Virus record (IMG/VR): IMGVR_UViG_2706794682_000018
DNA length: 16,334 bases
Origin: a virus
Taxonomy: Duplodnaviria; Heunggongvirae; Uroviricota; Caudoviricetes
Direction: 5' to 3' (one strand)
Below the pieces are notes generated by a model. That model did not search any database and was not told where the DNA came from. It saw only the letters and a program-made list of their open reading frames with translations. The number at the start of each line of letters is the position of its first letter. Positions within the stretch are counted from its first letter, which is position 1. Positions 1,977-10,403 of this stretch are shown here, in pieces. Position numbers and translations under genes: made by a program.

Positions 1977-2258
1977 TTATCCAGTGACGGTAGTCGAGGC
2001 TAAGGGCTTTTTTAACCTCGCATCCGCGCCTGCGGTAACACTGAATGAGCCATTCGGCCTGTTCTTCAGTGCATGGGGGATGCTGGTACCAATCAGATTT
2101 AAATGCGTGAGAGCGCCGCCCGTGCCTGCTGGCAAAGACGGCTGAATTATCAGAATTGTGTAGTCTGGAAGGCAGTGGCTGACAATAGCGCCATTCTCAA
2201 CGCGCACAGTATAGAGGCCATCTTCACTAAAAATTTCACGTAATTCTTCGATTTTCAT
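1977..2258 (-). CDS. Small ORF, copy 1 (MKIEELREIFSEDGLYTVRVENGAIVSHC...); only the first ~29 codons are shared with copy 2; occupies the position of rem in Qin-type prophages
   Basis: ATG at 2258-2256 preceded by GGAAGGA 8 nt upstream. The first 29 codons are shared with the ORF at 3497, with 4 synonymous and 2 conservative changes. The C-terminal 64 aa is unique and low-complexity, so true length is uncertain. Confidence 0.35.
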   Translation of the reverse strand: MKIEELREIFSEDGLYTVRVENGAIVSHCLPDYTILIIQPSLPAGTGGALTHLNLIGTSIPHALKNRPNGSFSVTAGADARLKKPLASTTVTG

Positions 2259-2379
2259 CAACAGAATCCTTCCAGATAAATAGCACTCCCCTGTTCGGGG
2301 TCCATCCCTCTTCTCCCTGCGCGCTACTTAAGTATTTTTGATTCTATTCCGGCACCATCTAAAACTTCAAACGCGTTGA

Positions 2380-2410
2380 AAATAAAAACAAAAACCCGCC
2401 GAAGCGGGTT
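2380..2410 (-). terminator. Intrinsic terminator downstream of hok copy 1
   Basis: On the minus strand, stem CCCGC, loop TTCG, stem GCGGG (plus 2395-2408), followed by TTTTTGTTTTTATTTT. It lies about 70 nt after the hok stop. Confidence 0.6.
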
Positions 2411-2478
2411 AAGTGTGGGTGCATTGAGGATGCCTGCCCCATCAGAGGTGGCGAGGGATTTCTCCCCCGCCTGGTCTC

Positions 2479-2634
2479 TTACTCCTCAGGTTCGTAAGCT
2501 GTGAAGACAGCGACCTCCGTCTGGCCGGTTCGAATTCGTACCTCGCAGAGGTCTTTCCTCGTTACCAGTGCCGTCACTATGACGGTTAAACAGATGACGA
2601 TCAGGGCGATTAACATCGCCTTTTGCTGCTTCAT
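2479..2634 (-). CDS. hokD: Hok/Gef-family type I toxin, 51 aa (HokD/RelF-like membrane peptide)
   Basis: MKQQKAMLIALIVICLTVIVTALVTRKDLCEVRIRTGQTEVAVFTAYEPEE, which I recognise as the Hok family (hydrophobic helix plus conserved Cys). ATG at 2634-2632 with AAGGAG 9 nt upstream. The 70-aa ORF in the track is an in-frame upstream extension. Confidence 0.85.
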   Translation of the reverse strand: MKQQKAMLIALIVICLTVIVTALVTRKDLCEVRIRTGQTEVAVFTAYEPEE

Positions 2635-2693
2635 AGCCTGCTTCTCCTTGCCTTTCGGCATGTAAGAGGCTAACCTACATGTGCAAAGCATGA

Positions 2694-2783
2694 AATTGGC
2701 CTCAGATTAATGTTAAGCGTCTTGCCGGACGCGTAATGTTAACTGGGGCTTTTCTCTATCTGCCTTTTGGTGTTCATGCCTGA
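2694..2783. repeat. Inverted repeat arm A (90 bp, perfect), inside the hok copy 1 leader region
   Basis: Exact reverse complement of 2916-3005, verified base by base at both ends and at internal checkpoints. Pairing breaks at 2693/3006 and 2784/2915. Confidence 0.9.
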
Positions 2784-2915
2784 GACAGATAGCCTCAAGC
2801 ACCCGCTGCAATTCTACTTAACTCTCCTTTTCCCGCAAACCGTTTTTATCCCCAGCGGCAAATCGAATACACCACCAGCGCCACCGCCATCGCAATTCCT
2901 ACCGTTGTTAATGCT

Positions 2916-3005
2916 TCAGGCATGAACACCAAAAGGCAGATAGAGAAAAGCCCCAGTTAACATTACGCGTCCGGCAAGACGCTTAACATTAATCTGAGGC
3001 CAATT
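2916..3005. repeat. Inverted repeat arm B (90 bp, perfect), 132 bp from arm A
   Basis: Exact reverse complement of 2694-2783. It overlaps the last 17 nt of the minus-strand 60-aa ORF 2989-3171. Confidence 0.9.
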
Positions 3006-3171
3006 GCAGGAGTTTGAAAAAACGCTTGTGGAATGCGTAGTTACACACACGCTTAAAGTCTGCGTGTATCCACTCACCTATTTTGATTTGATGCAGAAAA
3101 TCGCAACTCTCCGGCGTCGCCGGGAGAAGTAATCCGGAAGAGGTTTGTTTGACCAGTTGTATATGTGCCAT
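2989..3171 (-). CDS. Hypothetical 60-aa ORF (MAHIQLVKQTSSGLLLPATPESCDFLHQIKIGEWIHADFKRVCNYAFHKRFFKLLQLASD)
   Basis: ATG at 3171-3169 with GGAGAAAG upstream. No family recognised. Its 3' end runs into inverted-repeat arm B. Confidence 0.2.
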   Translation of the reverse strand: MAHIQLVKQTSSGLLLPATPESCDFLHQIKIGEWIHADFKRVCNYAFHKRFFKLLQLASD

Positions 3172-3209
3172 CGGCTTTCTCCGGTGGCACGGTGTTACAC
3201 AGCAGGAGT

Positions 3210-3497
3210 TCAATCCTGCTCAAGATTGTAGATGAGTTTATTCTTCAGCAAAAGCAGAAAACCAGCCTTAAAACCAATCTCTTTCAAAACCCGTAATGAT
3301 GTGACAAATTCGTCCTCACGCAAAATAAAACCGTCCGTCAGAAGTCCATTACAAAAATAAAATAACACAGCACCGCTCTTCCTTTGTTGAGATTGCAAAC
3401 ATCTAATGCGGCAATGGCTGACAATCGCTCCATTCTCAACGCGCACAGCATAGAGGCCATTTTCACTAAAAATTTCACGCAATTCTTCGATTTTCAT
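3210..3497 (-). CDS. Small ORF, copy 2 (MKIEELREIFSENGLYAVRVENGAIVSHC...); shares only its first ~29 codons with copy 1
   Basis: ATG at 3497-3495 with the same GGAAGGA site as copy 1. The 162-bp block 3411-3572 is about 94 percent identical to 2172-2333. The C-terminal tail is unrelated to copy 1. Confidence 0.3.
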   Translation of the reverse strand: MKIEELREIFSENGLYAVRVENGAIVSHCRIRCLQSQQRKSGAVLFYFCNGLLTDGFILREDEFVTSLRVLKEIGFKAGFLLLLKNKLIYNLEQD

Positions 3498-3619
3498 CTT
3501 CAGAATCCTTCCAGATAAATAGCTCTCCCCTGTTCGGGGTCCATCCCTCTTCTCCCTGCGCGCTACTTAAGTGAGTCGATTCTATCTGCGAAGGTGCGCG
3601 AATCAAATTCACCGGAAAT

Positions 3620-3670
3620 AAACAACAAAAAACCCGCCGAAACGCTGAGAGATCACAGCGATGGGCGGGT
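3620..3670 (-). terminator. Intrinsic terminator of hok copy 2 (two-tier hairpin plus T-run)
   Basis: Outer stem CCCGCC/GGCGGG (3633-3638 / 3664-3669) with inner stem CGCTG/CAGCG, followed on the minus strand by TTTTTTGTTGTTTATTT. Homologous to the copy 1 terminator with an insertion in the loop. Confidence 0.5.
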
Positions 3671-3746
3671 TAAGTGCGGGTGCGTTGAGGATGCCTGACA
3701 CATCAGAGGTGGGCGGGGATGGGATCAGCTCCCCGCCCGGTCACTC

Positions 3747-4060
3747 TTACTTCCTGGNNNNNNNNNNNNNNNNNNNNNNNNNNNNNNNNNNNNNNNNNNN
3801 NNNNNNNNNNNNNNNNNNNNNNNNNNNNNNNNNNNNNNNNNNNNNNNNNNNNNNNNNNNNNNNNNNNNNNNNNNNNNNNNNNNNNNNNNNNNNNNNNNNN
3901 NNNNNNNNNNNNNNNNNNNNNNNNNNNNNNNNNNNNNNNNNNNNNNNNNNNNNNNNNNNNNNNNNNNNNNNNNNNNNNNNNNNNNNNNNNNNNNNNNNNN
4001 NNNNNNNNNNNNNNNNNNNNNNNNTGAAGCAGATAGCCTCAAGCACCCGCAGTCATTCTA
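3747..4060 (-). other. Second hok-family locus (paralogue of copy 1) whose coding region and leader are hidden by the N run 3758-4024
   Basis: 3661-3757 is homologous to the copy 1 hok 3' region 2410-2490. A stop TAA sits at 3749-3747 with ..RK just upstream. After the N run, 4025-4057 is homologous to copy 1 at 2780-2815 (CAGATAGCCTCAAGCACCCGC). Confidence 0.5.
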
Positions 4061-4105
4061 CTTACCTCGCCAATATGAAATCAATCAGAAAGGTGCCCCA
4101 TAAAA

Positions 4106-4792
4106 TCACTCCTTCTCTTCTTTACCGTAGTGGAGTTGACCAATTTTGATAAGAGGGCGTCCCTGAGATTTGCGGTGTAGATTGGTATCGCGCAGAGAAT
4201 ACACACAGCCACAATATTCCTGCTGATAGAATTTTTCGCGCTTGCTGATTTCAATCATACGGGACGAGCCGCCCTGCTTGCGCCAGTTATAATCCCAGTA
4301 CACCATGCCCGGATAATGCGCGACGGCTCGCCGCCCACAGTCGTTAACCTGCTGCATATTTTTCCAGCGTGAAATGCCCAGTGAACTGCTGATCACACTG
4401 AAACCATTTTCAGCGGCGTACAGCGCTGTCCGCTCAAAACGCATGTCAAAACACATGGTGCAACGGATCCCTCGTTCGGGCTCCCATTCCATTCCTTTGG
4501 CTCGTTCAAACCAGTTGTCTGTGTCGTAATCAGCATCAATAAACGGCACGCCGTGTTGTTCAGCAAAGCGAATATTCTCATCCTTACGAATTAAATACTC
4601 TTTCTGAGGATGAATGTTCGGGTTGTAGAAAAAGATGGTGTAGTCGATTCCCGAGGCCTGAAGCGCCTCCATCACCTCACCGGAACATGGAGCACAGCAA
4701 GAGTGCAGTAGTAGTTTGTTTGCCCCGTTTGGGAGCTCCAATTTGGGCCGTTTGAAATCAGCAACTGTCATAAATATGTTTATTGGGGTCAT
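4106..4792 (-). CDS. DUF208 / QueH-like (epoxyqueuosine reductase family) Cys-rich protein, 228 aa
   Basis: Clean 228-codon ORF. N-terminal [11 protein letters not shown] and FFYNPNIHP motifs, plus further Cys pairs (RCTMC, EYCGC), match my recollection of the DUF208/QueH family. The assignment is from memory, not a search. Confidence 0.5.
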
Positions 4793-4939
4793 AAAAATAT
4801 CAAAGAGTGTAGCATTAGAACGGGGCTATCGGAAACAGATGTGTGACTGCTCCCCGCCCTTTCGGGTGGTCTCCTGATGATTTGAGGGTGCAGAAATCCC
4901 TCCGGTTAAGGATTAAATTTTTAACAGTGCTAAATTTAA

Positions 4940-5296
4940 TTATTCAGTTCTGGATTTTGTCGCCCTGCGTATCCGCGCTTTCGCGTTACGCTCAATCTGT
5001 ATCAGCTTTTCTATATTTCTCCGCCTTTCCTGTTCCTCCTGGCGCAATAGCCTTACATCATCTGCCAGTCTGGTTTCTCTTTTTGCCACAGAGAGCATCC
5101 AGTCAAACGGCTCCACAACCGCACCGCAGATTTTACAGCGGACCTGACGCTCTTTTTCGTCAACCCGTACAGAGGCGTGATGGCAATATGGTCTTTCCGA
5201 TGGCTCATAAAGAAAATTAACCTGATTACGAGGGTCATCCTCTTTTACCGGAAATAAAACGATATTGCTTAACTCATCTTCTGGTTTTATTTCCAT
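4940..5296 (-). CDS. Hypothetical protein, 118 aa, Cys/His motif (CHH...CKIC) and basic coiled-coil-like C-terminus
   Basis: ATG at 5296-5294 preceded by AGGAGAGGAG. The track ORF extends upstream to 5353 but the internal ATG has the strong ribosome-binding site. No family recognised. Confidence 0.6.
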   Translation of the reverse strand: MEIKPEDELSNIVLFPVKEDDPRNQVNFLYEPSERPYCHHASVRVDEKERQVRCKICGAVVEPFDWMLSVAKRETRLADDVRLLRQEEQERRRNIEKLIQIERNAKARIRRATKSRTE

Positions 5297-5353
5297 GCTC
5301 CTCTCCTTTGATGCGAATGCCAGCGGTAATTGAAGCCTGATAGCTAATTTCAT

Positions 5354-5776
5354 TCACAGTATCGCCTCCTGAAAATTACCCTGATAGAAAGCCAGTACAC
5401 GCTGCATAGCTTCGCTCTTCCGGCACTCGCGACAGATTATATTCAGGCGCCTGTCGTAGCGGCGTATTTCTCCGTCAGGTAATGACCAGATAAGGTCCGG
5501 ATCAACAACAACCGGTTTCCTCACCTTTACTCTCGAGAGTTTTTTGCGGGCGCTTTGCCAGTCCTTGCGAGCCTGTTCAGACGGGAATAAGCCGTAGCCA
5601 GAATTATATACATCACCACTTGCGACCAGTTCTATGCATAAGCGACCGACAGACGCACGACTGATACCTGTTTCATCTGACAACTGCCGAATCGTGACCC
5701 GACCGTCCTGATGCACGAGTTCCACAATTCGCGTCTTCAGTTCTTCCCGCTGTTCGGGAGTAAAAGGTTTCGCCAT
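5354..5776 (-). CDS. Hypothetical DNA-binding protein, 140 aa, helix-turn-helix-like (TIRQLSDETGISRASVGRL)
   Basis: ATG at 5776-5774 with AGGAGG upstream. Lies immediately downstream of the DnaC-like gene on the same strand. Confidence 0.7.
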   Translation of the reverse strand: MAKPFTPEQREELKTRIVELVHQDGRVTIRQLSDETGISRASVGRLCIELVASGDVYNSGYGLFPSEQARKDWQSARKKLSRVKVRKPVVVDPDLIWSLPDGEIRRYDRRLNIICRECRKSEAMQRVLAFYQGNFQEAIL

Positions 5777-5790
5777 AAATCCTCCTGAAA

Positions 5791-6537
5791 CTACTTAACA
5801 ACCCTCGAATGGCTAACATTCGGACGCCAGCTCTCCCAGTTAAAATTCACCCAGCGCCCGCCGTTCATGACCATGCGATCCATCACCCGCTCGCCGAGCA
5901 ATGTTTTCATCACCTCATAGTTCAGGTTTGTCAGCATCCCCACGCTGCGCATCGACGCTGTCCGGCGATCAACAATCTGGTGCAGCACCACCTGCTCGTT
6001 TTTCGTCTCGCGCTGAATGCCAATTTCATCAAGAACCAGCAGATCCACTTCGCACAGCTCCCGCAAAAATTTTTCGCCTGACTGCCCGTCGTCATAGCTG
6101 GCGTGCAGGGCGCTCATAACATCAGCCACGGTAACCACAATCACTGTCTGACCGTCTTTCAGCAGGCGATTCCCGATAGCTGCCGCTAAGTGGTTCTTCC
6201 CGGTACCAGGTTTTCCGCTGAACGCAAAATTTGTACACCCGGTCATCAGTTCATCAGCGATGGATTTCGCCTGACTCAACGCGTATCGCTGCGCTTCGTT
6301 CTGCACCTGGTAATTCGAAAACGAGCATTTGCGGTGCAATGGCTGGATGCCAGAGCGATTCAGAATTTTTTCCACCCGCAACTGACGATTCTGACGGTTG
6401 ATCTCCTCACAACGTTTCTGGCCTTCGGAAAGTTGCCACTCGCGCCACTCCGCTACCGTCTTGAATGGCGCGGTTACATGTGACGGGGCCAGTCTGCGGA
6501 TACGTTCAAGAACGTCGCCTGTCGCAATATTTTTCAT
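5791..6537 (-). CDS. ydaV: DnaC-like replication protein / helicase loader (lambda P analogue)
   Basis: 248 aa with Walker A GKPGTGKNHLAAAIG and Walker B LLVLDEIG. AGGGGG site upstream; start 6 bp after the ydaU stop. Confidence 0.9.
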   Translation of the reverse strand: MKNIATGDVLERIRRLAPSHVTAPFKTVAEWREWQLSEGQKRCEEINRQNRQLRVEKILNRSGIQPLHRKCSFSNYQVQNEAQRYALSQAKSIADELMTGCTNFAFSGKPGTGKNHLAAAIGNRLLKDGQTVIVVTVADVMSALHASYDDGQSGEKFLRELCEVDLLVLDEIGIQRETKNEQVVLHQIVDRRTASMRSVGMLTNLNYEVMKTLLGERVMDRMVMNGGRWVNFNWESWRPNVSHSRVVK

Positions 6538-6543
6538 GGTCAG

Positions 6544-7401
6544 TTACCCCCTGAAGCCTGGCGGGATCGCACTATCCGGTAACGAGACGGTGTTAACCTG
6601 TCGGAGTAACGTCTCAGGTCGAACACCTTTCGGCGCGAACAAGCCCTGGTATTCATTGGCGATGCTGTGTCGAATCACCTGCTCAGGTGAAAAACCCTGC
6701 TGGCGGAATTTTTCCAGCTCCCGTATCGCCCCGTTAGCGCCCTGCTCCGTTCGAATCGGTTTTCGCAATGCCTGGCGAAATTCAACCCACTCACGCCAAA
6801 GCGAGACAGAAATCCAGTTCGGCAAAGCAATATCCAGAGGGTCAAACTTTTTGACACCTCGATTCCCCCGGGGGGGATTTAGGGGGGGATCTGTTTTTAG
6901 ATCTTTATCTGTATCTTTATTAGTTGCCTTTGTGTTGACATCATGTTCAAACACCACTTCAACATCTGTTTGAACACCTGTTAAATTTCTCTCTTGTTTT
7001 GTTTGAACATCTGCTTCCTTTCTGCTTCTTCTGGCCTGAACAGATGCTTTTCCTGCGGCTGATTTTTTGGTTAATTTTTCCCTGACTGATGCCAGATCTT
7101 CCTCAATCCGAAGATGCACCCATTCCTCGCCGTTATCGCAAAAAAACTCCTGCAAGGATGGTTCAACATCAGCCCATCGCTCGTTAGTCAGACGGGCAAT
7201 TTTTGCCAGCCTGTTTTTAGGTATTGGCTTTCCTGTTTGCCAGTAATTGAACATCAGCAACAAATACGCACCATGCTCCTCTGCTGACAAATGCATGGTG
7301 TCAGCCAGGTAATCAGCTATGTACAGTTGCATGTATGGTAATGCGGCCATAATTGCCCCGTATGATGCTGCCCGGTGGCTTAGAATAAGCACAAACAGCA
7401 T
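6544..7401 (-). CDS. ydaU: Replication initiation protein, DUF1376 (lambda O analogue)
   Basis: 285-codon ORF directly upstream of the DnaC-like gene; length matches recalled YdaU. Start codon uncertain (no clear ribosome-binding site at 7401). Confidence 0.8.
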   Translation of the reverse strand: MLFVLILSHRAASYGAIMAALPYMQLYIADYLADTMHLSAEEHGAYLLLMFNYWQTGKPIPKNRLAKIARLTNERWADVEPSLQEFFCDNGEEWVHLRIEEDLASVREKLTKKSAAGKASVQARRSRKEADVQTKQERNLTGVQTDVEVVFEHDVNTKATNKDTDKDLKTDPPLNPPRGNRGVKKFDPLDIALPNWISVSLWREWVEFRQALRKPIRTEQGANGAIRELEKFRQQGFSPEQVIRHSIANEYQGLFAPKGVRPETLLRQVNTVSLPDSAIPPGFRG

Positions 7402-7413
7402 GGAAACTTTTGC

Positions 7414-7836
7414 TTAATGAACAATGACAGAATCGTCGGAAGACCCGCCGCCGCTGAAATGCGCTTTCCGGTAAACGGCTTGGACTGCATCATCATGCGC
7501 ATCAATTGCCGTACTTAACGCTTCCTGCGCCGCCAGTAATGCACGGCGTTCCAGGGTATCGAAGATGCAGAGTCGGTGACGCAGCTCGCGCGGAAGGATT
7601 GCCAGAATTGCTGGGATCAGCTTCTGAATTTTTTCTCTTTGCGTTTTCGTTTCACCTTTCAACCAACGGTGATAGATATTCTGCTGATTATTCCAGTCCT
7701 TGCCTGGTACCAGGGGCAATTCGCCGCCCCCCTGGCGCAGATATTCTTCAGTAATGGCATTGGCTACCCATGCCTGCCCTTTTTCGGCTGCCAGGGCTAA
7801 CAACACTGACTCGATGTGCTCATGCTTGATTTTCAT
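7414..7836 (-). CDS. ydaT: Rac prophage YdaT-like protein (toxic when derepressed in K-12)
   Basis: 140 aa, ATG at 7836-7834 overlapping the ydaS stop (ATGA). Position and length as recalled for YdaT. Confidence 0.8.
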   Translation of the reverse strand: MKIKHEHIESVLLALAAEKGQAWVANAITEEYLRQGGGELPLVPGKDWNNQQNIYHRWLKGETKTQREKIQKLIPAILAILPRELRHRLCIFDTLERRALLAAQEALSTAIDAHDDAVQAVYRKAHFSGGGSSDDSVIVH

Positions 7837-9021: not shown

Positions 9022-9177
9022 ATGCAAAAAATCGACCTCGGCAACAACGAATCCCTGGTGTGCGGCGTGTTCCCCAACCAGGATGGAACGTTCACTGCCA
9101 TGACGTATACCAAAAGCAAAACATTTAAAACCGAAACTGGTGCGCGCCGATGGTTGGAGAAGCACACAGTAAGCTAA
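9022..9177 (+). CDS. ydaF: Small Rac prophage protein YdaF-like, 51 aa (below the ORF-track length cut-off)
   Basis: Translated by hand: MQKIDLGNNESLVCGVFPNQDGTFTAMTYTKSKTFKTETGARRWLEKHTVS. Convergent with sieB, stops overlapping. Confidence 0.55.
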   Translation: MQKIDLGNNESLVCGVFPNQDGTFTAMTYTKSKTFKTETGARRWLEKHTVS

Positions 9178-9662
9178 CGATTAAAACGTCTACTCCTGCT
9201 GTTCCAGAATAACTTCATAAAATGGGAGTATTTTTCGGTGACGAGATAATAAGAACAGTTTGCGCTATCACTCTGATGTTGAATGATGCCCTTCCGTTCT
9301 AATTTTTTCATAACCGGGTTACGGCAAGGAGAAGTGATAATAAGATTTCCTGTTTTAAGGAAATCTTTAAATACAGCGATTTCTTTCTCAGATAAACGAA
9401 GCAATACTCGTTGCTCTGGTAGTAATGAATAATGCTTTTGAATATGTGCTCGCAATCTTGAGAAGGAAATGGCGACCACGAAAGAAAAGGCAAAAACGAT
9501 AATCTGAAAGAGCCAAGGTATTTCAGTATAAGCATTGAATGCGACAGTAAACTCTTTCGGTATCAGCCAGAGAGTGAGACCAAAAATGATAATCGTATAC
9601 ATAAGTATTTCGAGTGGCTCGTTAGCAAAAAGTTTCAACAATGGAGTAAATACATCCAACAT
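9174..9662 (-). CDS. sieB: Superinfection exclusion protein B
   Basis: 162 aa from ATG 9662-9660 (MLDVFTPLLKLF...), with hydrophobic membrane segments. The track ORF extends upstream to 9785. Position between ydaF and kilR as in Rac. Confidence 0.8.
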   Translation of the reverse strand: MLDVFTPLLKLFANEPLEILMYTIIIFGLTLWLIPKEFTVAFNAYTEIPWLFQIIVFAFSFVVAISFSRLRAHIQKHYSLLPEQRVLLRLSEKEIAVFKDFLKTGNLIITSPCRNPVMKKLERKGIIQHQSDSANCSYYLVTEKYSHFMKLFWNSRSRRFNR

Positions 9663-10103
9663 ATCAATAACTCTCAACTGTAAGGGTATTGAAATGTTAA
9701 CACAAGCTCTCGCTGTAGGGGTATAGCCGAGACCACCGAAGCCCGGAGGTGGTGAAATAAAACCGGGCACAACACGAAGGCGCATTTCCGATATCCATAA
9801 AGAGTCGGTCTTGTCTGTTAAATTTAAATGGTGGGAGTGCGCCTCCGGTTGTAAATAACGACATTGCTGTGTGTAGTCCTGGCGGCATCAGTTTTTTTCT
9901 TGAAGTTCGGCTGATGTCCGCCCTTTTTAAAGTGAATTTTGTGATGCGGTGAATGCGGCTAAGCGCACGTGGCACAGTTAAAAGTCATGTTAGTCCTTAT
10001 TGGTTTGGGTGGGAAAGCCGACTGTAATTGTTAACTGGTTGCAGTCACCTGGAGGCACCAGGCACCGCATCAACAAAGTTCATTTGTAAAAATGGAGATA
10101 ATT

Positions 10104-10153: not shown

Positions 10154-10403
10154 NNNNNNNNNNNNNNNNNNNNNNNNNNNNNNNNNNNNNNNNNNNNNNN
10201 NNNNNNNNNNNNNNNNNNNNNNNNNNNNNNNNNNNNNNNNNNNNNNNNNNNNNNNNNNNNNNNNNNNNNNNNNNNNNNNNNNNNNNNNNNNNNNNNNNNN
10301 NNNNNNNNNNNNNNNNNNNNNNNNNNNNNNNNNNNNNNNNNNNNNNNNNNNNNNNNNNNNNNNNNNNNNNNNNNNNNNNNNNNNNNNNNNNNNNNNNNNN
10401 NNN

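Follow-up and report, generated by a model that had tools for sequence, protein, structure and literature searches.

A lambdoid prophage gene widespread in Escherichia coli encodes QueH, a probable cobalamin-independent enzyme that completes queuosine synthesis

The stretch of DNA analyzed here (the window; 16,334 nucleotides, IMG/VR virus record IMGVR_UViG_2706794682_000018, Caudoviricetes) is a segment of a lambdoid, Rac-like prophage, and the open reading frame (ORF) on its minus strand between positions 4106 and 4792 is a genuine, full-length member of the QueH family, agreeing with that family in every sequence and structural feature that could be tested. Most probably this prophage queH is a functional, cobalamin-independent epoxyqueuosine (oQ) reductase gene which was captured from a host, is carried as an accessory phage gene (a "moron"), and completes queuosine (Q) in tRNA without vitamin B12.

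E. coli is unable to make B12 de novo. The final step of Q synthesis is the conversion of oQ34 to Q34 in tRNAs with GUN anticodons, a reaction catalyzed by QueG (PMC7694415) in a pathway that was fully worked out in E. coli (PMC5372724). The QueG step needs cobalamin according to a statement in PMC4646009 that cites Frey 1988, whereas QueH is a cobalamin-independent oQ reductase of an unrelated family, not homologous to QueG, with a different cofactor (PMC5615194; PMC4646009). QueH is iron dependent, and the two enzymes coexist with distinct cofactors in Staphylococcus aureus (PMC13443448).

Identity of the prophage protein

The prophage protein matched the Pfam profile PF02677 (QueH, formerly DUF208/COG1636) over profile positions 1 to 174 of 175 with 220.6 bits (E = 1.9e-65), compared to a curated cut-off of 23.5 bits, and Pfam detected no domain in it besides QueH. 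QueH from Thermotoga maritima (PDB 7lc5) was found by phmmer with E = 5e-22 and 31% identity over 175 residues. The family is large, comprising 4,754 clusters at 50% identity in an exhaustive HMMER search, and we assessed conservation in two sets, a 51-sequence alignment with identities down to 36% and a wider set of 61 sequences. Cys32, Cys33, Cys36, Cys111, Cys114, Cys194, Cys196 and Arg110 are all present in the prophage protein; none of them varies within the 51-sequence alignment, and in the wider set each is found in the majority of sequences. The motifs that contain them, together with a further family motif, are as follows.

4682 to 4705, minus strand: HSCCAPCS motif (residues 30-37) with Cys32, Cys33 and Cys36, all three invariant in the 51-sequence alignment
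4607 to 4627, minus strand: YNPNIHP motif (residues 56-62), with an NPNI core nearly invariant across the family
4451 to 4462, minus strand: CTMC motif with Cys111 and Cys114, preceded by the invariant Arg110; conserved without exception in both sets (61 of 61 and 51 of 51)
4205 to 4213, minus strand: CGC motif with Cys194 and Cys196, invariant in the 51-sequence alignment and present in 54-55 of the 61 sequences of the wider set

The likeness to T. maritima QueH (PDB 7lc5, 7lc7 and 9deu) extends over the profile, the fold and the CC...RCxxC...CGC set of cysteines. Cys32 and Cys33 align with Cys9 and Cys10 of that enzyme and Cys36 aligns with Asp13; Cys9 and Asp13 are also the residues mutated in PDB entries 9d86 and 9dco. 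The prophage protein differs from it in having a cysteine at the Asp13 position, in being ∼20 residues longer at each end and in its genetic location, since the T. maritima gene is chromosomal. Conserved QueH residues were reportedly found by Li and colleagues in 2021 (Li et al. 2021) to bind a [4Fe-4S] cluster plus an adjacent single iron. With the predicted ligand residues intact and QueH as the sole domain, the prophage enzyme is likewise predicted to bind an Fe-S cluster and to be independent of cobalamin.

An AlphaFold model computed from the 51-sequence alignment had a predicted local distance difference test score (pLDDT) of 96.1 and a predicted template modelling score (pTM) of 0.91. 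The top five PDB matches found by Foldseek were all QueH, with template modelling (TM) scores of 0.90-0.92 normalized to the target and root mean square deviations (rmsd) of 1.2-1.9 Å, and the best of them was T. maritima QueH (TM score 0.92, rmsd 1.2 Å). The next fold, that of TtuA-type PP-loop enzymes, followed with E = 7e-5, ten orders of magnitude weaker. A first-pass annotation, made from the nucleotide sequence alone, had assigned the product to the DUF208/QueH family on the strength of the HSCCAPCS and YNPNIHP motifs, had set this family apart from the cobalamin-dependent QueG of E. coli, and had proposed a profile search and a structural comparison with QueH as checks; the results above bear it out on each of these points.

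Reading frame and translation start

The same annotation had described a 228-aa product. The ORF is real and appears in the window's ORF list with an ATG start, on the minus strand, which the annotation left unstated, but the protein itself is probably shorter, as the following features indicate.

4106 to 4771, minus strand: queH reading frame as probably translated, 221 aa, with Met8 as its likely true start and TGA as its stop
4772 to 4792, minus strand: residues 1-7 of the 228-aa reading (21 nucleotides), probably an untranslated 5' leader

The gene starts at Met8 (window position 4771) in RefSeq, 21 nucleotides inside the longest ORF, giving the 221-aa protein WP_012421537.1. Among 20 distinct alleles, amino acid variation affects residues 2, 3, 5 and 6, that is, 4 of the first 7 codons, but only 7 of the remaining 221. 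The first seven residues are also absent from chromosomal queH orthologues, which have their N terminus at the position equivalent to Met8. Because the RefSeq start, the pattern of allele variation and the orthologue N termini coincide, Met8 is probably the true start, and we take 4106-4771 as the coding sequence.

Cellular origin and selection

One genome per species was scanned for the gene. Identity was highest in Escherichia albertii (99%), ahead of Scandinavium (92%), Kluyvera (91%) and Enterobacter (89-90%). A Ren-QueH-Hok prophage arrangement surrounds the gene in E. albertii alone; in Scandinavium and Enterobacter it is flanked by genes of metabolism or regulation. More distant homologues in Providencia, Photorhabdus and Erwinia (79-86% identity) lie among housekeeping-type, non-phage genes, namely tmcA/purC/bamC/dapA in Providencia and purL/glrK/glnB/hmp/glyA in Erwinia. 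Across all of these chromosomal relatives (79-92% amino acid identity) length and N terminus are the same as in the prophage copy, which differs in lying between phage replication genes and hok/sok and in moving with lambdoid prophages. In a neighbor-joining tree the prophage clade falls inside the chromosomal queH genes of Enterobacteriaceae, and the remainder of the tree roughly follows the taxonomy of Enterobacterales. Because the prophage clade nests within chromosomal genes that have non-phage neighbors, the sequence relationships identify the prophage queH as a cellular gene captured by a phage.

The genome contig scan also returned further copies. The prophage protein is 76-80% identical to proteins from Sphingomonas, Stenotrophomonas, Lysobacter and Paracoccus, an unusually high conservation, and 78-86% identical copies appear under implausible labels (Bacillus subtilis SK7B5, a metagenome-assembled genome of Avacidaminococcus, and Pseudomonas lundensis), which probably reflect contamination or mis-binning (loci L120, L125, L127, L137-L142 and L166 for the distant and implausible copies together).

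All 82 prophage or viral copies sampled are intact. The ratio of nonsynonymous to synonymous divergence (dN/dS) is 0.044 among the 20 alleles, whose 60 polymorphic sites include 47 in the third position of a codon, and 0.03-0.04 against the nearest chromosomal relatives, from which the prophage gene is separated by a synonymous divergence (dS) of 0.9-1.6. Because a dS of ∼0.9 even to the nearest relative is coupled with a low dN/dS, queH has long been kept on the phage under strong constraint. These values also bear on whether the gene might be neutral, a piece of host DNA that has hitch-hiked into the phage, has no function there and is decaying. Such a view could appeal to the fact that queH duplicates a function which every E. 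coli already has in QueG, and to 10 of 995 E. coli hits that cover less than 80% of the gene. It is nevertheless very improbable, given the intact copies, the long residence under constraint, the retention of the gene while modules on both sides of it were exchanged (see below), and its occurrence in Shigella, in E. albertii and in as many as 18% of the complete genomes of E. coli.

Genomic position and transcription

In each of the 82 prophage or viral loci of the E. coli type, queH lies directly after the replication module and in the same orientation, and in most of them a Hok-family gene follows ∼185-245 nucleotides after it. Upstream, the exchanged modules are of the lambda-O or DUF1376 type and carry Ren or DUF977; downstream, they are DUF968 with RusA, HNH with RusA, or DUF1367/1364/1133. 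On the replication side the modules that border this same queH are of at least three kinds, and on the nin/Q side they are of three kinds. With its position fixed amid such exchange, queH behaves as a stable passenger of a hot spot for recombination or for morons.

Two conserved features precede the gene.

4806 to 4814, minus strand: TGCTACACT, a candidate TGn-extended -10-like promoter element ∼34 nucleotides before the Met8 ATG, invariant in 15 of 15 upstream variants from 83 loci
4772 to 4845, minus strand: conserved upstream block of ∼75 nucleotides, defined by alignment, which travels with queH under any of three unrelated farther-upstream sequences

Upstream of the chromosomal queH genes of Scandinavium, Kluyvera, four Enterobacter species and Symbiopectobacterium we found TGCTACAAT, TGCTACACT or TGCTACCCT, while the remaining upstream region of these genes could not be aligned with the prophage sequence. 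The element common to phage and chromosomal copies is TGCTACA(A/C)T, and in the closest chromosomal clade it stands at the same distance from the gene as in the prophage. The motif GCTACNNT starts 40-44 nucleotides before the start codon in the eight closest relatives and 59 nucleotides before it in three further loci, so that it occurs in 11 of 77 loci compared to 0.52 expected from shuffled sequences (maximum of 3 in 300 shuffles). The element is common only to this closest clade, the prophage upstream block having no obvious similarity to the upstream regions of Providencia and Photorhabdus.

A second viral lineage (loci L178-L184) carries a QueH that is 87-89% identical in protein and ∼80% in DNA, with ATGCTACTAT at the position corresponding to the upstream element. 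Here queH and an AIPR/Abi-alpha-like gene lie on the strand opposite to the O-like and DnaC-like replication genes and converge on them. Because the element is common to the chromosomal copies and the second lineage has the gene on the opposite strand, we favor independent, moron-type transcription, which would start from the native extended -10 element. In L178 the two genes form a queH/Abi cassette at 4941-7524, with a UmuD-like gene on its other side.

The position of queH could instead mean that QueH is functional but made only in the lytic cycle, from an early-right (pR-type) transcript, so that Q modification would serve late-gene translation and the gene would be silent in lysogens. The gene does follow the replication genes directly and in the same orientation in 82 of 82 E. 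coli-type loci, a consensus scan of the coding strand between them found neither a full sigma-70 promoter nor a terminator in either upstream variant, and the RNA upstream of queH has no significant structure (fold z = -1.17). However, the conserved extended -10 element, which chromosomal queH has at the same spacing, speaks against a purely lytic gene, and queH of the second lineage cannot be read from the early operon because it lies on the opposite strand and converges on it. Lysogenic and lytic expression are, moreover, compatible with each other, and we regard expression restricted to lytic growth as unlikely.

Other candidate signals were considered and set aside. A GC-rich hairpin at ∼4853-4870 lacks the T-run of a terminator and does not occur in the commonest upstream variant. 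An Rfam scan of positions 2000-6000 revealed no riboswitch or comparable RNA element ahead of queH; besides sok, it returned just two hits, both sub-threshold, near 2389-2475.

Proposed role beside QueG

Since queG is present in 5,426 of 5,426 complete E. coli genomes, and hence in every queH carrier, the prophage gene does not fill a gap but provides an additional route that uses another cofactor. QueG is part of the core chromosome, whereas this queH is accessory and phage borne. S. aureus, Streptococcus pyogenes and Streptococcus suis likewise have two non-homologous enzymes with different cofactor needs for this one step, a pairing that has been interpreted as an adaptation to cofactor availability (PMC13443448; PMC12632869); in these species both genes are chromosomal, whereas in E. 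coli the second enzyme arrives by lysogeny.

We propose that a lambdoid temperate phage captured queH from an Enterobacteriaceae-type chromosome, apparently together with its own extended -10 promoter, and that the gene has since been carried as a moron at the junction of the replication module and the nin region, beside hok/sok. Its product would reduce oQ34 to Q34 in host tRNA-Asp, tRNA-Asn, tRNA-His and tRNA-Tyr without B12, and lysogens, and probably infected cells too, could then finish Q-tRNA with or without the vitamin. The role is most likely this B12-independent completion of Q-tRNA, in lysogens, during lytic growth or in both. The 89-92% identity to chromosomal queH at a dN/dS of 0.03-0.04 suggests that the prophage enzyme converts oQ to Q; for this particular copy we infer enzymatic activity, promoter activity and physiological benefit alike.

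Several points weigh against this proposal. The only crystallized enzyme has Asp13 in place of Cys36, yet cysteine is the family norm at this position (57 of 61 sequences). Neither candidate start is preceded by an evident Shine-Dalgarno sequence, the scan described above found no full sigma-70 promoter, and no NCBIfam model matches the protein; as the QueH name in RefSeq must stem from another kind of rule, this last result is uninformative either way. A fitness benefit would also presuppose that oQ and Q tRNAs differ sufficiently in decoding.

We know of no epoxyqueuosine-type DNA base. This matters for the idea that the gene takes part in 7-deazaguanine modification of phage DNA, as do the DpdA/preQ0 clusters of phage 9g and its relatives, which are likewise phage-borne genes of 7-deazaguanine metabolism. 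QueH does belong to that metabolism, and phages do modify their DNA with preQ0, G+ and related bases (PMC6884629), but the known clusters are reported to lack QueA, QueG and QueH (PMC6884629). Whereas the 9g-type clusters make preQ0-derived DNA bases, the prophage has a lone QueH: among the substantial ORFs of the window, Pfam detected no DpdA/TGT transglycosylase and no FolE, QueD, QueE or QueC, and no such gene is annotated in the prophage of the identical E. coli locus (L001) or in positions 1-39,697 of the 45,272-bp record of Escherichia phage HannyBb. We consider a role in DNA modification extremely improbable.

Recruitment of QueH to defence or counter-defence, for example by an alteration of tRNA that evades or triggers tRNA-targeting systems within a prophage defence island, would fit a moron or defence hot spot with hok/sok immediately downstream and SieB elsewhere in the window, and the second lineage pairs queH with an abortive-infection-type gene. 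However, the neighbors vary by lineage (hok/sok in one, Abi in the other), as expected for a generic insertion hot spot, and the PADLOC models matched none of QueH, the Zn-ribbon ORF, orf95, Hok and DUF968, with only sub-threshold noise for DUF977. The close identity to ordinary chromosomal queH and the low dN/dS given above likewise carry no sign of neofunctionalization, and we judge such a role improbable. Of the three roles that the first-pass annotation had put forward, tRNA queuosine is thus the one supported; for 7-deazaguanine DNA modification the partner genes are missing from the window and from the HannyBb annotation examined, and for defence no PADLOC model matched.

Distribution, annotation and significance

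By megablast, queH is present in 995 of 5,426 complete E. coli genomes (∼18%), with 985 hits covering at least 80% of the gene, and it also occurs in E. albertii and Shigella. Among the 1,017 places matched in E. coli, three are plasmid borne, and some genomes have two copies, which may represent phage-plasmids or double lysogens. Carriers include ST131, O157:H7, O111, avian pathogenic E. coli (APEC) O1, strain 042 and Shigella sonnei. QueH-like sequence was found by tblastn in 25 of 50,697 phage records, with HannyBb as the only convincing isolated phage; the others are unannotated fecal contigs or 280-380-kb "phage" records, which we judged unreliable evidence of phage carriage. Family-wide patterns picked out 213 relatives among the 2.9 million contigs of IMG/VR, and a separate scan with patterns taken from the prophage QueH matched 188 stretches; because the latter number comes close to the former, most IMG/VR relatives are probably of the E. 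coli lambdoid type. Phage carriage of queH is therefore rare and essentially limited to a couple of enterobacterial lambdoid lineages, yet common within E. coli. The first-pass annotation had proposed a survey of Rac-type prophages, and these counts provide it.

As a molecule the prophage protein is ordinary, a well-annotated member of a characterized enzyme family. RefSeq holds its exact 221-aa sequence as a MULTISPECIES protein, encoded on at least 1,000 contigs, the RefSeq product of every E. coli entry listed is "epoxyqueuosine reductase QueH," and UniRef also names the exact sequence QueH. The identity of the protein is thus already known, and the first-pass annotation had over-rated its novelty. 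For Shigella sonnei Ss046 the 228-aa form is on record under the name "conserved hypothetical protein / COG1636." The gap in annotation lies on the phage side, where PHROG 3217 is labeled "unknown function," with a profile that begins at residue 41 and so omits the CCAPC metal-ligand motif, and where the HannyBb gene is annotated "hypothetical protein."

Our literature searches found no paper on phage-borne or prophage-borne QueH/DUF208. Hutinet et al. 2019 reported no homologue of QueA, QueG or QueH in the viruses that they analyzed (PMC6884629), and the prophage gene is a counter-example to that survey. The remaining interest is modest and lies in what may be an unremarked case of a phage supplying a B12-independent tRNA modification enzyme to ∼18% of E. 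coli strains. The received view is that Q synthesis in E. coli ends with a B12-dependent step, that of QueG, and a phage-delivered, B12-independent bypass in this fraction of sequenced strains would mean that results obtained in K-12 on oQ and Q levels, on B12 limitation and on queG mutants may not transfer to queH carriers.

A broader view, which we offer tentatively and with somewhat more doubt than confidence, is that of lysogenic conversion of tRNA modification: a phage-carried queuosine tailoring gene, expressed from its native promoter, would free about one-fifth of E. coli, together with Shigella and E. albertii, from B12 for Q-tRNA. If this is true, carriers would also be independent of BtuB-mediated uptake for Q-tRNA, decoding of NAU/NAC would be affected in B12-poor niches, and no queuosine-specific tailoring gene other than queH would have been noted on a phage to date.

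Neighboring features of the window

In order, the window contains genes for an integrase, DUF1187, RecT, RecE, SieB, a cI-like repressor, a small helix-turn-helix protein and YdaT, followed by a DUF1376 O-like protein, a DnaC-like protein, DUF977, the Zn-ribbon ORF, QueH, a masked hokD, orf95, a second hok/sok, DUF968/HNH and RusA. This order agrees with the first-pass annotation, which had placed queH on a prophage, between replication genes and hok modules, and the prophage is of the lambdoid type. The features around queH are as follows.

6544 to 7401, minus strand: DUF1376 O-like replication protein (Pfam domain scan)
5791 to 6537, minus strand: DnaC/IstB-like loader (Pfam domain scan)
5354 to 5776, minus strand: DUF977 gene (Pfam domain scan)
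4940 to 5353, minus strand: Zn-ribbon ORF directly upstream of queH, 137 aa, a weak match of 21 bits that is below the cut-off
4055 to 4084, minus strand: sigma-70-like promoter match TTGATT-18-TAGAAT just past the queH stop (consensus match), with an equivalent site in locus L086
3758 to 4024, strand not assigned: run of 267 N immediately downstream of queH, corresponding to the hokD (mok/hok/sok) locus, with flanks that match L001
2479 to 2804, minus strand: second hok/sok module, with a Hok ORF at 2479-2691 (HOK_GEF, 81.7 bits) and a sok RNA at 2629-2804 (RF01794, 117.5 bits)

In other prophages the slot of the Zn-ribbon ORF is taken by an unrelated 118-aa ORF or a Ren-like gene. In L001 hokD is annotated 228 nucleotides after the queH stop, and the promoter match at 4055-4084 is probably that of the hok mRNA. 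A second N run, of 250 nucleotides, lies at 10154-10403, between the SieB side and the RecE side.

The second hok/sok module (2171-2827) shares 87% identity with the hokD module of L001, and positions 2912-3005 are a 94-nucleotide inverted copy, 100% identical, of the 5' region of the hok mRNA (L001 12762-12855). The window therefore contains tandem hok modules and an inverted hok fragment. Downstream of the Hok ORF, positions 2389-2475 on the minus strand gave sub-threshold Rfam matches to isrK (25.8 bits compared to a gathering score of 50 bits, E = 0.011) and to rsmX, and this element may be a prophage small RNA or the 3' fold-back element of the hok mRNA. A homologue of the superinfection-exclusion protein SieB (9174-9785, minus strand, 108 bits) lies in the immunity region, and with the two hok/sok modules and queH the prophage has at least three accessory or defence-type functions.

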